In this document: in pieces, positions 35,601-64,000 of the stretch
How positions within the stretch are numbered: the first letter of the stretch is position 1
Layout: each line of letters begins with the position of its first letter
From: a plasmid
Direction: 5' to 3' (one strand)
Sequence record: NZ_KX832927.1
DNA: 64,000 bases
Position numbers: made by a program

Positions 35601-38600
35601 CGGTAATTGAGATCCAAAGAGCGACTTTCTGAAATGCCGTTCCATCTGACCATACTGGTGACGGGGCCAAAGGGCGCTCGCTCGATCTGGCTTGCCAGGC
35701 TTGTTGTGGTGCCTGCTTGTGTCGTTGCCACCTCGATGACGTCACCGGCTAAATCACGGGTGTAGGAAACCTCACGACCACTGGGATACGTGATCTTCGT
35801 GATGAGGCCTGCACCATCGTATTGGTACTGGGTAGTAAGGCTCTGCCCGTGGGTTTCCCAGGTCTCGTAAGCCAACCATCCTTCGGGTGTATAGCCATAT
35901 CTCCGGACACCGTTGCCATCATCGACTGAGGTCAAGCGGCCCATGCCGTATGGTGAGGTTGCTTCGTCGTACCCGTACAGAATTGGCGATTCGCCAGCGA
36001 CACCGCTGGATGCCTCGATGATCCGGTTCAGCGCGTCGTAGCTGTAGCTTGTGGTTTGTCCCTTGGCCGTCTTGCGCGTTGCCACGTTACCGGCTTCGTC
36101 ATAGGTAATGTCGGTGGTGCCGGTGTCCGGGCTCCGGACCTGAGTCACTTCGCCAAAGCCGTTGTAGCTGTAGTAGGTCAGGCGCGAACGAGGGTCGGAG
36201 ACACGGTAAACATCGCCGGTATCCTTGTAGAGCACCTGCGTGACCTTCCCGAGTGGATCGGTCGTTTGTGTCCGGTGATGGAAGCCGTCGTACTTGTAGG
36301 AGTGTGTGTTACCAGAGGGACTGGTCTCCTGTATCAGGTTTGCCACCACATCGTAGGAAAACGATGACTGATTGCTATAGGCGTCGGAGACACTGGAGAG
36401 CCAGCCGATTTCGTTGAAGATCCGGCGCTCTATCCAACGGGTCTGGCCCAGCGCATCGAGCAGTCGCTCTTCTACTGGGTTCCCGAGGTCATTGAGCTCA
36501 AGCTCGCGCCGGTTGCCCTGTGCATCTGTTTCCGCCACCAGCCGATGTGCAGCGTCGTACTCATAGCTGACGGTTGCACCATTTGGCTTAGTCAGCGAGC
36601 TCAGGAGGCCCACAGCATCATAGTTGTAGGCCGTGGTTCCTTCTGGTCCAGTGGAGCTGACAAGTCTTCCTCTGGCGTCATAGGTGAGGGTTTGGGTTAC
36701 ACCGTTGACGCCCTGAATGGTCCCGGCGCGACCGTTCGCGTCGTAGTCACCAAACTGCATCACCTGCCCCAGCGCGTTTGTTGTCCGGATCAGGTTGCCC
36801 TGGTCATCGTAGTCAAATGTCGTAACATCGCTGACGTCGGTGCGCGGACCATCAACCGAGGCCAACAGGCTCGGCTTTCCTGTACCAACAGGGGCATAGG
36901 TGTAGGTCCATGTCCGGGAAGCGCCCGAGCTGCGATCTGTGACCTTGCGGCTTATCACCCGGAGATGAGTGTCGTAGGTAAGCTCAGTGATCCTGGTTGG
37001 TTCCGTGATTTTTGCAGGGAGCGACTTGGAAGGAAGCCAGTCGGTCGTAACCTTGCCCCCATCCTGGTCTATCTGGGTGGTTTCCAATCCCCGGTCGTTA
37101 TGGGTGAACGTGCGCTTCTGTCCAGCACGATCTGTAATGCTGGAGACGAGGCCTTTGCTGTCGTAGACGTAGGTTTCCTTGCCTCCCACAAAGCCGGTAC
37201 ACGGCGCACCCTCAACAACATCAGGCTTGAGCATCCCGTTGTGACGGCTGTAGGTATATCGCTGAACGTGGCCGAGGGCGTTGGTGACAGAGACGCTTCC
37301 GTCAGCGTTGTAGCTTACCTGAGTCTTCTCTGCGCCCCCGGCGTGTTCACTTAGAACTGCCATCCCCTGAGCATCATATCCCCATGTGGCGAAACGGTTG
37401 CCGTTCTCGTCCACCAGCCCAGAGAGCAAACCCGGTGCATTCGGGTCATCGTAGAGATAGCTGCGGCTCGTATTGTCCTGGTAGATCACTTCCGCCAGCT
37501 TGCCAGCGCTGTTGTACTGGTACTGAATACTGCCACCAGCAGGATCGGTGACACTGACCATGCGGCCATCTTGATGCTGGAACTGGATGTTGCGGCCAAA
37601 GCCGTCAGTGATCGAGGATAGCTCTCCGTTCAGATAGCTCAGGGTGATGTGATTGCCGTTGGGCTTCTCGATGCCGGTCAGTCGTCCGGTTTCATCATAG
37701 GCCTCGACTACCCCGTCAGATTGAGTGTAACGCCAGCCGGTAGCATCCTTCGTCAAGGTATCATCGGTTTTCCATGTTGGCACCCAGACAGAGGACGAGT
37801 TGTAGAACGCGAGTTGTTGCCCTTCTGGCCGGTGCAGGACAACCATGTTCTCACCGTACTTCGAGGCGTTGACCTCGACGCTCCGCGAGTAGGTATGCCG
37901 CCAGCCGCCGAGCTCTTCATCAGGAAGGTGGCTATTGTAGTATCTGGTGAATGTGAAAGGGTCGGAGCCTCCGCTTTGATAATCCAGTTCAGCCTGGAAC
38001 TTGTTGCCGGTGCCAAGATGGATAGGGTTCCCTACACACATGGTCGTTGTTGGTAAGCCGAGATCCCTGTCCAGGAACGGTGTTTTATCCATCTCACCCG
38101 GCAGAACATAGGTTGAGCGCCAGTAGACCGTAGCTGGGTCGCCAGTGCAGGTAGTGGGGTCATAATCGCCAGTAGCACCTAGATACTTAAAACAGATCCT
38201 GGAGACATAACGGCCATCACCATAACTGGCAACCGGATAAAGCGCATCCCCAACTGGCGTTCCCTTCCCTTGCTCCTCACCAGAGCGATAATTCTTCATG
38301 AAGGAATGCGCGTCTATGATGGTGTTGAAGCGCATTTTGTCTACTTCGGTGCTCACGGCTACAACCCGCCATTGTGCAAAAGCAACGCATGGCAAAGTTG
38401 CGAGCACCACAACGGCCAATGACCGCAGGTTTCGCATCAGTAAAAGGGAAGGTCTCGATCTCATTTACAGCTCCAGTTTTTATGCTGGAGCTATTTTCAG
38501 GTGGGAGAGTCGTTATCAACGACTGCGTTTTTGCCCTTTTAGGGTATGAATACGTGATTTGGAGAGGTTGTGTATTCAGAACAAATGAGAAGCAGGTTAC

Positions 38601-62600: not shown

Positions 62601-64000
62601 CTGTTACACCTTGACGCCGCCAATCAAGCCAATCTTCCTCTCGTTGCGATAGGTTGACTATTTTCATGGACCTCTCTCCAATGGTTAGGAGGGAGATCTC
62701 CCCCAGCGGGGGAGTCCCCCCCGTTGGGGTTAGTAGTAACTGCCTTCCGCGCCCTCCTCTTCTGTAACAGGGATCATGTCCTCGTCACTCAAAGGCGGCA
62801 TTTCTTCGGCACCAGGTTCAGCATTTGCAGAACCACCAGCGGCGGACTCTTGCTCGTGCGCTTCCTGGTAGTCAGGTTTCGGAGGCTCCATTTGATCCAT
62901 CTCCTTGTCACGAAGGAATTGAGTCGCATATTGCAGTTCCGAACCTTCATACCGTCCCTTCACATACTCATGCGCCGCAGACCATGCGTTTTCAGCAATG
63001 GCGCGATTTGCGAGTTTGGTTAGGATCGGGTCAAGCTCTTTGTGCTCAATAGCCAAAGGCTCTTGGCTTTGAACTTGAGATGGTGAAGGGAGATTGGCAA
63101 TAGCCGGGTTAATGGCCGATGCCTGCTCCATTTCACGGATGCGTTCAGCTTCATCCTGGTCATAAATACCAGAGAAACCAAATGCGACACGAGAACACTG
63201 GATCAGCGACTTGTGCCGGAGTTGACGCTTGGTGTGCGTTTGCCAGGGGCCATCAACAGTGTAAGCACCATTGCGACCTTGACCCTGAAACGGTTCACGG
63301 TACACCTCATCAATGAACTCCTTGATGCGGATAGGGCGAGATCTGTCCTTACGGTAAATCACGCATTCAATCCACTCAGGGCAGTCAACTTTCGCCCCCT
63401 GCATTCTGACCATCTTGTCCGAATACACGAACTCGACGCCATCATACTGGGGATGCTCGTTGATGATGCGGCTCCAACCATCAACACCTACTACCGGAAT
63501 GATCCCATTTTGCTTGTCAGGAAACGCATAGATTTCCCGAGTGAAAGGGTTCAAACCGTACTGTTCAGCCACGATCAGGAGCGTCATCATCTGCTCATCG
63601 GTCGGGGCACTTCCATCTCGCTGCTTGAATGCGGTCGCCTTCAAAGTTTCATAGAACTTTCGGGTGTCCACGCCAAACCGGCTTGCGATACGGGTTACAA
63701 GAGATTTGTTATCAGACATGGTGTTTCTCCAATTCACGAATGAACGGTTTGAGGACACCATGACCCCCTCGGGGCATGAGTGCCCCCGTGGGGTTTAGTA
63801 AGAGTTGGCGGTGTTACCCGCCAGCCAAGTGGTGCAGCCGCATGAACGAGATGTCATCATCCCAGCCATCAGGAGCGGGACCATAGCCTCCGCCCATACC
63901 ACCTTGCGGTGCTGATTGCTGCACAGGAGCAGATTGCGTACCGGCTCCTGTACGTTGCCCTTTTTGGGGCGCTGCACGTTGAGAGTTGTCCTGAGGTGCA

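Follow-up and report, generated by a model that had tools for sequence, protein, structure and literature searches.

Candidate translational attenuators with an alternative fold before the genes of an IncC plasmid operon block

The bet attenuator and its probable IncC counterpart

According to a review (PMC4542580), bet in SXT is preceded by a strong translational attenuator, one that IncA/C plasmids also possess. In the summary of Garriss, Poulin-Laprade and Burrus (2013) provided in that review, removal or mutation of the helix in SXT raises the level of protein without a matching rise in mRNA. A structure sequestering the ribosome-binding site has also been predicted for vcrx089 (Roy 2020, PMC7498323). 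IncC plasmids and SXT/R391 elements are important vehicles of multidrug resistance, and the functions encoded in the block studied here are those of host-defence evasion: anti-restriction (vcrx089-090), repair of CRISPR cuts by Ssb, Bet and Exo, orphan methylases and a primase.

The window analysed is the whole stretch of 64,000 nucleotides from plasmid record NZ_KX832927.1. Its 38-64 kb region is IncC backbone and contains the ssb-bet-exo ... dcm ... primase block, which is transcribed leftward. An element at 63717..63801 occupies the place of the 'bet attenuator', with which it is equated here on the basis of its position and of a sentence in the review (PMC4542580). The operon family and the position before bet are the same, and the effect stated in the review's summary, high mRNA but low translation, would be the same. 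There are, however, two differences. A single attenuator, for bet/exo, is treated in the review, whereas about 23-25 copies are found per element in IncC; and the AA-CCC...GGG clamp and predicted alternative open fold shared by the copies go unmentioned in the texts consulted. The bet attenuator would be a single representative of an uncatalogued and deeply conserved RNA module situated ahead of almost every gene of the block. The design of this module names specific strands to mutate, and its architecture is that of a compact natural riboregulator.

Distribution and anatomy of the elements

A preliminary description of this DNA had reported about 20 intercistronic GC-rich stem-loops, flanked by GGGTTA, before almost every backbone gene. 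It is apparent that these hairpins are real. The motif or a near variant (UAGCCC, UAAUCCC, UAAACC and CAACCC were counted), together with a GC-rich hairpin, was found in 22 of the 29 gaps of at least 20 nt, and the window holds 33 copies of GGGTTA, compared with 16.8 ± 4.5 in shuffled sequences, none of which (0/100) reached 33. A 23rd element, ahead of a small unannotated ORF, lies within one of the motif-bearing gaps, and the total counted is about 23; the coordinates given in the preliminary description were approximate, being up to ~35 nt off. A similar density of the motif in coding regions can be ruled out. Within 38465-63832, where the coding strand is the minus strand, TAACCC occurs on that strand 17 times in 3,518 intergenic bases (4.83 per kb) and four times in 21,850 bases inside genes (0.18 per kb), a 27-fold difference; its count on the opposite strand in the intergenic bases of this region is zero.

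A covariance model (CM) of hairpin A, the principal stem-loop, was used for scanning. At a threshold of E ≤ 0.2, 19 minus-strand matches were obtained across the window, with none in bases 1-38,000. Another 50 kb of IncC backbone (L002) gave no matches, and a further 50 kb (L003) gave two, both where the same operon block begins. The statement that almost every backbone gene is preceded by an element is correct for this one block of ~28 kb, in which almost every gene has its own copy, but not for the tra, rep and par operons. The elements were nearly absent from viral contigs. A search of Rfam with positions 38000-64000 returned only four sub-threshold chance matches, none of them on any element, and no description of the whole family was found in the literature. 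The suggestion that the elements had not been described for this backbone consequently holds for the family, with bet (PMC4542580) and vcrx089 (Roy 2020) as the two members to which it does not apply.

Each element consists of three parts: a G-poor flank with (U)AA at its end; hairpin A, which is 27-30 nt in length and closed by CCC/GGG; and, approximately 33 nt further on, the start codon of the next gene, with the Shine-Dalgarno (SD) sequence of that gene taken up in a second hairpin, C. L′, the 5′ arm of C, has a second complementary partner in the top of hairpin A, which allows an alternative hairpin B. The elements had been placed between the upstream stop codon and the next ribosome-binding site, but the spacing is fixed only with respect to the next start (26-39 nt from hairpin A to the AUG, mode 33), and the distance to the upstream stop is variable. 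The UAA or UAG of the motif is the actual upstream stop codon in 8 of 74 elements, and in nine more a stop is located within 6 nt; over half are separated from the upstream stop by more than 12 nt, or are situated in 5′ leaders behind promoters or rptI repeats. A strict TAACCC flank is not conserved either; what is retained is A-A/G-CCC behind a G-poor stretch. In a scan performed without that requirement, position -2 was A in 81% and position -1 in 73% of cases. AA-CCC is the sole sequence kept across ~100 otherwise covarying elements, and positions -8 to -3, directly adjoining the stable hairpin, are A/U-rich, with 3-11% G.

The elements of the block are as follows (CM scores in bits; z, fold z-score, which ranged from -2.9 to -5.8 in the eight IncC elements folded).

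63717..63801, minus strand: bet element, with UAAACCCC flank, hairpin A, anti-TIR, SD GGAG and ATG; the true bet ATG is at 63719
63762-63799, minus strand: hairpin A CM match of the bet element, 31.6 bits
62665..62736, minus strand: exo (61657-62667) element; CM 41.6 bits; the UAA of UAACCCC is the bet stop codon; the MFE fold, at -38.7 kcal/mol (z -3.6), consists of hairpins A + C
61455..61526, minus strand: element of the DUF3150 gene (ATG 61457), UAGCCC variant; CM 30.9 bits; right behind an rptI repeat; nearly identical in sequence to 52799..52873
60093..60170, minus strand: element of the VWA gene (58299-60095), UAAACCGACCC variant; CM 19.7 bits; folds
57005..57075, minus strand: element of a 166-aa gene (56507-57007); CM 35.0 bits; z -2.9; a second TAACCC lies 10 nt upstream
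56431..56507, minus strand: element of the adenine methylase gene (55549-56433), UAAUCCC variant; energy-based fold, no CM R1 match at E ≤ 1; hairpin A (-18.9 kcal/mol) is followed by hairpin C covering the SD and AUG
55481..55555, minus strand: element of the yfaE-like ferredoxin gene (55259-55483), UAGCCC, the UAG being the upstream stop; CM 30.1 bits; z -4.6; hairpin A loop GGGGCGUGACAU similar to TIR GGAGCGUGACCAUG
55195..55265, minus strand: element of a 129-aa gene (54808-55197); CM 18.6 bits; the UAA is the upstream stop; the pAsa4c ortholog has a covarying stem
54026..54092, minus strand: element of a 63-aa gene (53837-54028); CM 16.7 bits, E 0.13; weak hairpin A, dominant hairpin B
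53766..53831, minus strand: element of a 117-aa gene; CM 30.5 bits; the true ATG, 53768, is confirmed by the pVCR94 annotation, and the longest-ORF start, 53792, is inside the element
53221..53290, minus strand: element of a 114-aa gene (52879-53223), by sequence and fold; no CM R1 match; right behind an rptI repeat; scanner match at the orthologous site in L005 (16796)
52799..52873, minus strand: element of a 100-aa gene (52499-52801); CM 21.2 bits; z -5.1
52419..52493, minus strand: dcm (50796-52421) element, UAAACCC; CM 33.3 bits; z -3.2; the MFE fold is alternative hairpin B
49441..49509, minus strand: element of a 128-aa gene (49057-49443), CAACCC; CM 23.9 bits; right behind an rptI repeat
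48967..49032, minus strand: element of an 817-aa PAPS-reductase-like gene (46516-48969); CM 31.2 bits; pAsa4c ortholog
46312..46375, minus strand: element of a 67-aa gene (46111-46314), by fold; no CM R1 match; in the vcrx114 leader, ~60 nt downstream of the published AcaCD-dependent TSS
46037..46109, minus strand: element of the yfbR-like 5′-deoxynucleotidase gene (45434-46039); hairpin A -15.2 kcal/mol; the MFE fold is hairpin B plus an SD hairpin
44864..44932, minus strand: element of a 185-aa gene (44309-44866); CM 23.4 bits; z -5.0
44232..44303, minus strand: element of the NgrC-like gene (43383-44234); CM 38.2 bits
43176..43245, minus strand: weak UAAUCCC variant before an unannotated ORF of ~49 codons (ATG 43178); CM 16.1 bits, E 0.18; behind an rptI repeat
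42923..42993, minus strand: element of a 128-aa gene (42539-42925); CM 25.7 bits; z -5.3; hairpin A loop GGGUACACUU similar to TIR GGAGUACACCUU
42359..42503, minus strand: composite variant of the primase gene (40634-42361); CM 18.4 bits; hairpin A, then an extra long conserved hairpin, then the SD; equal layout in pAsa4c and Marinomonas
40294..40367, minus strand: element of a 79-aa gene (40057-40296); CM 33.5 bits; z -5.8

Several lines of evidence support a selected RNA structure, namely covariation, permutation tests and conservation across elements. Among 130 distinct CM-aligned sequences, 85.4% of the hairpin A cells are paired, and 211 cells are compensatory, compared with 92.8 ± 8.1 in shuffles (0/500 as high); in slid controls, pairing was 60% at most. 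The coding strand folds more stably than its complement (mean -18.0 versus -16.0 kcal/mol, p = 4e-8), a comparison biased somewhat by selection of the elements with a coding-strand energy threshold, and G.U pairs make up 9.7% on the coding strand versus 3.8% on the complement. The complementarity is three-way, involving the segment of hairpin A designated L, L′ and the SD and start-codon region (TIR). Native L:L′ pairs have an energy of -14.6 kcal/mol versus -10.0 for swapped pairs, and native L′:TIR pairs -12.7 versus -8.1 (permutation p < 5e-5 and n = 48 in both cases), with ~8 of the ~10 L′ nucleotides common to both pairings. The same design was found at orthologous genes in pAsa4c and in Edwardsiella, Marinomonas, Alcanivorax, Marinobacterium and Paraglaciecola elements. 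An ICE of the SXT/R391 type carries family members as well, including one upstream of bet (L013 9935-9971, CM 24.2 bits, with the fold); ACCACCC is a common flank in SXT-type elements, being as frequent as UAACCC within one element.

Predicted folds and a proposed switch in translation

Taken as a family, the elements are proposed to attenuate translation in cis and to have an alternative 'on' fold built into them, a reading to which a probability of about 0.65 is assigned. Each module would form part of the 5′ untranslated region of the following gene. In the closed fold (A + C), hairpin A would be clamped by CCC/GGG behind the G-poor stretch ending in AA, with segment L held in its upper stem and loop, and the next segment, L′, would be paired with the TIR in hairpin C, a pairing that would hide the ribosome-binding site. 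In the open fold (B), L′ would pair with L rather than with the TIR, the 3′ arm of hairpin A would fold on itself (CCC-N3-5-GGG) and cap hairpin B, and the AACCC strand and ribosome-binding site would be free. Hairpin A would be the first to form during transcription and A + C would be the most stable state, so that low translation would be the default from the strongly transcribed AcaCD/SetCD-driven operons. Occupying or melting the AACCC strand of hairpin A would flip the element to the open fold. CCC would be conserved since two CCC strands must compete for a single GGG; the conserved AA before it is a feature outside what the attenuator model explains.

The energetics are nearest-neighbour predictions, made without pseudoknots or proteins. 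At least 75% of the SD was paired in the full-length MFE fold of 52 of 60 elements, hairpin A was intact in 49, and for transcripts ending at L′ the MFE fold was hairpin B in 50. Genes with an element are predicted to need 10.3 kcal/mol for TIR opening, versus 6.7 for a comparison set of 56 further genes of the IncC backbone (p = 4e-4), a moderate excess of about 3.6 kcal/mol with overlapping distributions. With AACCC plus 3 nt held unpaired, the predicted cost was 5.8 kcal/mol rather than 9.4, whereas no relief was predicted when all 13 nt of the arm were blocked. Hairpin B is the full-length MFE fold in some members, for example those before dcm and before bet in pVCR94, which are therefore predicted to be 'on'. 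Barriers were estimated at about 20 kcal/mol from A to B and about 15 from B to the closed fold, both values being upper bounds obtained with direct nested paths. By extension from these predictions, attenuation may be exerted by all members and hairpin B may be used in vivo. The preliminary description had offered several readings, of which an RNA-level cis element and attenuation are supported, the latter acting on translation, given the paired SD, the opening costs and the bet review; attenuation of transcription is not.

The closest mechanistic parallels are the translation attenuation of ermC and cat and classical SD-sequestering leaders, which share with the IncC elements mutually exclusive pairings (closed, 1:3 + 4:5; open, 2:4) and an SD freed once an upstream strand is occupied. 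The IncC elements differ in that they lack a conserved leader-peptide ORF with its own SD, have no known inducer and are repeated ahead of many unrelated genes. Inspection of the aligned elements by eye disclosed no short leader ORF that had an SD of its own and overlapped the first switch strand, and the sequence upstream of the elements is the tail of the preceding gene, at a variable distance. As in hok/sok mRNA, lengthening of the transcript changes the best predicted fold (from A to B and on to A + C) and predicted barriers are large; unlike hok/sok, no antisense RNA, toxin or 3′ processing step is known for the IncC elements, and their use of a metastable fold is a prediction.

A more speculative, and on present estimates improbable, proposal is that the ~25 modules constitute one post-transcriptional regulon, in which a single trans-acting cue, by occupying or melting the conserved AACCC strand, would flip all of them out of the closed fold and into the metastable open one. 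A helicase might serve as the cue, as might an RNA-binding protein of the host or plasmid, or ribosomes coupled closely to nascent RNA just after entry of the plasmid into a new cell. If this were true, it would afford a timed burst of anti-restriction, recombination-repair, methylase and primase proteins at near-zero cost in established hosts.

Alternative explanations and other repeated elements

The elements might instead act in mRNA processing or stability, with the UUAA flank serving as an RNase E type cleavage site and hairpin A acting either as a 5′-terminal stem-loop protective of the downstream cistron or as a 3′ barrier protective of the upstream one. The A/U-rich flank beside a stable hairpin would suit such a role, as would the way in which the elements punctuate long operons poor in sigma-70-like promoters (2 found versus 14 expected) and also lie behind AcaCD-promoter 5′ leaders and rptI repeats. 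It would, however, leave unexplained both the complementarity of L′ to L and to its own TIR and the fixed 33-nt distance to the AUG, and the ACCACCC flank of SXT-type elements is not AU-rich. This role is considered unlikely, although it could coexist with attenuation. A relay of translational coupling, in which a terminating ribosome would melt AACCC, L would capture L′ and the next ribosome-binding site would be freed, gene by gene, is consistent with the motif-associated stop codons and with the predicted 3.6 kcal/mol fall in TIR cost on blocking AACCC plus 3 nt but not the full arm. It is nevertheless quite doubtful: over half of the elements are too far from a stop, or lie in leaders at which no upstream ribosome arrives, and, of 12 window cases judged by eye, about 5 have the UAA in the reading frame of the upstream ORF, a proportion near chance. 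A dedicated trans-acting factor, whether a protein of the plasmid or host or a small RNA, reading (U)AACCC or hairpin A as a block-wide switch would account for the retention of AA-CCC and for the predicted opening of the TIR when that strand is occupied. A strict sequence reader is argued against by the equal frequency of ACCACCC and UAACCC in SXT-type elements; moreover, no RNA-binding domains were found among 20 small block proteins, and 5-7 nt is too short for a specific small-RNA seed. Such operators are regarded as decidedly improbable.

Functions at the DNA level, as single-stranded hairpins (for priming or as ssDNA promoters), palindromic protein sites or recombination sites (attC-like, or substrates of Bet/Exo), would be in keeping with a block that encodes primase, Ssb, Bet and Exo and in whose spacers rptI repeats are used by Bet/Exo in repair. 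They are very unlikely, because the coding-strand fold is the more stable and G.U-rich one and the element is complementary to its own ribosome-binding region, a property meaningful only in RNA; the stems, too, vary between copies and offer little homology. Integron attC sites were rejected, the core GTTRRRY (GUURRRY in RNA) being found between hairpin A and the AUG in 0 of 72 elements, with RYYYAAC fitting the 5′ flank in nine of 72. Frpo/ssi-type ssDNA promoters, the features of which were taken from PMC11541004 for Frpo, were rejected as well: hairpin A, at 27-30 nt, lacks the length for rebuilding -35 and -10 boxes, and in pVCR94 the block (65-94 kb) is ~30 kb from the traI/oriT region (traI promoter at ~35 kb). 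Intrinsic terminators or transcriptional attenuators between genes, a reading to which the GC-rich hairpins in intergenic spacers might point, are scarcely credible and indeed contradicted: at least five U residues within 8 nt after hairpin A were found in just one of 70 elements, terminator-like sites are not enriched (26 versus 20.7 ± 4.9) with no convincing one at an element, and published RT-PCR indicates read-through from vcrx087 to vcrx094.

REP/BIME sequences are, like these elements, GC-rich intercistronic hairpins of polycistronic mRNAs that are able to affect mRNA fate. They are near-identical, occur in both orientations, lie 3′ of genes and are chromosome-wide, whereas the IncC elements are strand-specific and diverse in sequence, keep a constant spacing to the following AUG and occur in one block only. 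Identification as REP/BIME or MITE-like repeats was rejected, given that sense matches dominate, the stems differ and covary, and the AUG distance is fixed. The PeSLs of T4-type phages were reportedly described by Arbiol et al. in 2010 as 'mobile regulatory cassettes' in which an early promoter and a stem-loop flank small ORFs. The two resemble one another as repeated stem-loop cassettes that lie, within a plastic part of a mobile element, ahead of numerous small genes whose function is unknown; PeSLs, however, are promoter-bearing, near-identical and recombination-promoting, whereas the IncC elements are promoter-free, diverse in sequence and tailored to the ribosome-binding site of each gene.

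Gene context and occurrence of the motif

In the annotations of pVCR94 and a Shewanella IncC plasmid, positions 38.5-64 kb of the window form a single leftward-transcribed block. Its gene order is ssb, bet, exo, then DUF3150, VWA, two methylases, yfaE, dcm, a PAPS-reductase-like gene and yfbR, to the primase, with numerous small genes of unknown function interspersed among the named ones. Window positions 52000-58000 match hundreds of IncC (IncA/C2) plasmids at 100% identity (940 matching records, 729 of which reach at least 99%).

The preliminary description reported GC-rich stem-loops ending in GGGTTA on the plus strand before almost every gene of this backbone. 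It is apparent that GGGTTA is enriched twofold (33 occurrences in the window vs 16.8 ± 4.5 expected). On the coding (minus) strand of the block, spacers hold 17 copies of TAACCC in 3.5 kb and coding sequence four in 21.9 kb, and the opposite strand of the spacers holds none; equal density in coding sequence, which had been named as the outcome that would speak against the motif, was clearly not observed. A motif or close variant, followed by a GC-rich hairpin, was found in 22 of the 29 spacers of at least 20 nt. Genes without an element overlap a neighbour or have another type of spacer (an AcaCD promoter, or the true terminator at 58282-58253). The example sequences quoted are present, although their coordinates are off by up to ~35 nt.

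Sigma-70-like promoters are strongly depleted in 44000-63999 (2 seen vs 14.0 ± 3.4 expected), which is consistent with long operons dependent on AcaCD. The transcription signals of the block are as follows.

38532-38552, minus strand: AcaCD box of the published type, TTTGCACCCnAAAAGGGCA, for vcrx128
Spacers 46315-46515 and 57638-57901: AcaCD boxes of the published type, TTTGCACCCnAAAAGGGCA, for vcrx114 and vcrx098
58253-58282, minus strand: sole convincing intrinsic terminator of the block, with a 13-bp stem and U-tract

The terminator occupies the spacer beside the VWA gene, among the few spacers that lack an element. The AACCC sequence was considered as a primary transcription start and rejected, since the published start site of the vcrx114 leader lies ~60 nt upstream of the element.

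Pfam analysis of 20 small ORFs of the block revealed no dedicated RNA-binding factor; the sole match was that of the 133-aa product of 39436-39837 (minus strand) to the MatP N-terminal domain (E 6e-7). An unannotated ORF of ~49 codons (MNKFQDFKLVYRQGG...; 43029-43178, minus strand), with a good Shine-Dalgarno (SD) sequence and its own weak AAUCCC element, was observed in the long spacer separating genes 42539-42925 and 43383-44234.

Anatomy and conservation of the element

On the mRNA strand, the first part of each element is a flank poor in G and rich in A/U, with AA (or AG) at its end. It is followed by hairpin A, which is 27-30 nt long (mode 29), with CCC/GGG closure, CCC-N3/4-GGG spacing and an inner stem that is mostly NCGGG/CCCGN. 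Its upper portion, made up of part of its 5′ arm and its loop, constitutes segment L. This is complementary to segment L′, which starts 0-3 nt past hairpin A and includes an anti-SD, CUCC/CCC; thereafter come a loop devoid of G, the SD and, past a spacer, the AUG. The minimum free energy structure of most elements consists of two adjoining hairpins, A and C, the latter formed by L′ with the SD and AUG; energies range from -29 to -39 kcal/mol (z -2.9 to -5.8 vs dinucleotide shuffles).

Of 74 elements compared across seven loci, nearly all keep 26-39 nt between the end of hairpin A and the AUG, and the spacing to the upstream stop codon varies from overlap to more than 100 nt, which indicates that the module belongs to the downstream gene. 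Gene starts were set from strong GGAG SD sequences. The longest-ORF starts of gene 53415-53834 and of bet (62730-63761) fall within elements (the stretches concerned are 53768-53792 and 63719-63761, respectively), and the SD-backed starts, ATG 53768 and ATG 63719, are those of the pVCR94 annotation; gene callers can be misled by AUG triplets that lie in segment L.

In a relaxed scan, whose sole requirement was a CC...GG hairpin with its end 24-42 nt 5′ of an SD-AUG and which yielded 96 elements, A was present at -2 in 81% and at -1 in 73%, with G at 3-11% from -8 to -3. As the AA-CCC signature persists without having been required, it is real and not an artefact of the search pattern. The conserved UAA was rejected as a functional stop: only 8 of the 74 elements use it as a true stop, its in-frame rate is not above chance and -3 is U in only 48-62%.

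Several lines of evidence point to selection on RNA structure. Among 130 distinct sequences aligned to a covariance model, the variable inner pairs of hairpin A covary: 85.4% of cells pair, as against 51-60% in slid controls, and the 211 compensatory cells (92.8 ± 8.1 in shuffled alignments) were reached in none of 500 shuffles. Folding is more stable for the mRNA-sense strand (-18.0 kcal/mol) than for its complement (-16.0; p 4e-8), and the former has more G.U pairs (9.7 vs 3.8%), both comparisons being somewhat biased by selection on coding-strand energy. In 16 ortholog groups, the same design, in different sequence, precedes the same genes across IncC, pAsa4c (75% DNA identity) and further elements of Edwardsiella, Marinomonas, Alcanivorax, Marinobacterium and Paraglaciecola.

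Three near-identical elements (52799-52873 and 61455-61526 in the window, 4196-4266 in the pVCR94 sequence), ribosome-binding region GGAGUGCAUCAUG included, precede unrelated genes, which suggests that whole modules are occasionally duplicated or converted. The primase leader is more complex than those of other elements: a long, very stable hairpin (CCGGUGUCGGGGUUUCCUUAAAACCC...GGGGGUUUAAGGAAGCCUCGAUGCUGG; window 42362-42470, minus strand) lies between hairpin A and the primase SD, and is kept in three divergent elements (the window, pAsa4c at 10117-10288 of locus L004, and Marinomonas at 14171-14305 of locus L010).

Alternative pairing and proposed translational attenuation

Duplex tests were limited to the 48 elements with room for separating the segments. 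Native L:L′ pairing averaged -14.6 kcal/mol vs -10.0 for swapped partners, and that of L′ with the translation initiation region (TIR; SD plus start-codon region) -12.7 vs -8.1 (permutation p < 5e-5 for each). Some 8 of the ~10 L′ nucleotides are used in both pairings, which are therefore mutually exclusive. In the alternative L:L′ fold, hairpin B, the cap is CCC-N3-5-GGG, formed by the 3′ arm of hairpin A pairing within itself; this accounts for the retention of two CCC strands and one GGG. L resembles a literal copy of the TIR in only a few members (55481-55555, 52799-52873, 42923-42993), and overall L-TIR similarity is only slightly higher than in swapped pairs (3.92 vs 3.38); L is therefore described in terms of shared complementarity to L′. 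An H-type pseudoknot, in which the loop of a closed hairpin A pairs with L′, was judged sterically impossible, with a linker of 0-3 nt over a 10-12-bp stem.

When transcripts were lengthened in silico, hairpin A alone averaged -18.9 kcal/mol. Inclusion of L′ made hairpin B the most favourable structure for 50 of the 60 elements (mean -24.4), and at full length the combination of A and C was best (mean about -32): A was intact in 49 of the 60, and at least 75% of the SD was paired in 52. Opening positions -15 to +3 costs 10.3 kcal/mol in element-bearing genes vs 6.7 for a set of 56 others on the same plasmid (p 4e-4). The same cost is 11.7 kcal/mol with hairpin C only and 9.4 in native context; holding AACCC plus 3 nt unpaired lowers it to 5.8, the level of ordinary genes, and blocking the whole 13-nt arm gives no relief (9.3). 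Direct-path barriers in a pseudoknot-free model, which are upper bounds, are ~20 kcal/mol from A to B and ~15 from B to the closed state.

The favoured reading is a module closed by default, acting as a translational attenuator, that would attain its open fold only when the 5′ strand of hairpin A is occupied or melted. An upstream stop codon lies within a few nt of the element in a minority only, so a terminating upstream ribosome would reach that strand only there; release by a dedicated factor is possible. Complementarity of UUAACCC to GGGUUAA near nt 1090 of 16S rRNA was set aside, as a 7-nt match within 1.5 kb has a chance expectation of about one in ten.

A role in processing or stability, in which the AU-rich flank would hold an RNase E-type site and hairpin A would be protective, may coexist with attenuation, but it leaves both the gene-specific three-way complementarity and the fixed AUG distance unexplained. 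Intrinsic terminators are excluded, as the elements lack a U-tract and terminator-like sites are not enriched, and so are integron attC sites, whose core none of the 72 elements contains. Being strand-specific, sequence-diverse and tied to an AUG, the elements do not match REP/MITE repeats; nor do they match single-stranded DNA promoters, given hairpins that are much too short and ~30 kb between the block and the traI/oriT region.

Distribution, published members and the rptI repeat

Scanning of relatives with a covariance model, as had been proposed, revealed members outside the window: sense matches numbered 19 in the window (E <= 0.2) and 23 in pVCR94. Neither window bases 1-38,000 nor 50 kb of IncC backbone from elsewhere (with traFHG, acaCD and rep among its genes) gave any, and the two in a further 50 kb (tra operons) both lie at the start of the same ssb-to-primase block. 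An SXT/R391-type ICE, located via its Bet protein, also carries elements, in which ACCACCC is about as frequent a flank as UAACCC. The elements preceding bet in IncC (63717-63801) and in this ICE (directly 5′ of the gene, 9935-9971 of locus L013) are ordinary family members.

When 2.9 million viral contigs were scanned for the exact pattern, 23 matches emerged, mostly single and at chance level. The only viral-database contigs with at least three sense matches, L029 and L030, both look like plasmid or ICE fragments. L030 (IMGVR_UViG_2744054965_000003, 4,548 bp) contains four elements with scores identical to those of IncC, and is most likely an IncC ssb-bet-exo fragment filed as viral.

The elements thus form a genuine family of structured RNA modules, strongly conserved and specific to one region; their kind, the SD-sequestering translational attenuator, is already known. 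No Rfam family matches them, and full-text literature searches returned no paper describing the family, the AA-CCC clamp or the alternative fold. The preliminary statement that they are undescribed for this backbone accordingly stands for the family, but not for every member, as a structure likely sequestering vcrx089's ribosome-binding site has been predicted (Roy et al. 2020, PMC7498323); the same study reports a single transcript covering vcrx087 to vcrx094. A passage in a review (PMC4542580) reports a translational attenuator for bet in SXT, which is assigned here to the element by position. What appears to be undescribed is how the family is organised as a whole, together with its conserved clamp and the alternative fold built into the modules.

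A second repeat, GATTTTGYYCTC...GAGRGCGAAAAGTGCGATAGCTGGTCGCCAAAAACAAACAGCA, is situated just 5′ of the AACCC element in six window spacers.

61548-61567, 57716-57735, 53302-53321, 49520-49539 and 43264-43283, minus strand: rptI cores
Spacer 46315-46515: shorter copy of rptI

GATAGCTGG...CAAAAACAAACAGCA was considered as an AcaCD promoter and rejected; the published box is TTTGCACCCnAAAAGGGCA, and the sequence in question is the rptI repeat. The identification of GATTTTGYYCTC...GAGRGCGAAAAGTGCGATAGCTGGTCGCCAAAAACAAACAGCA as rptI follows from the distances between its copies in pVCR94 (23,702, 10,310 and 9,268 bp), which equal the published sizes of deletions at rptI repeats, used by Bet/Exo for repair (Roy et al. 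2020, PMC7498323).
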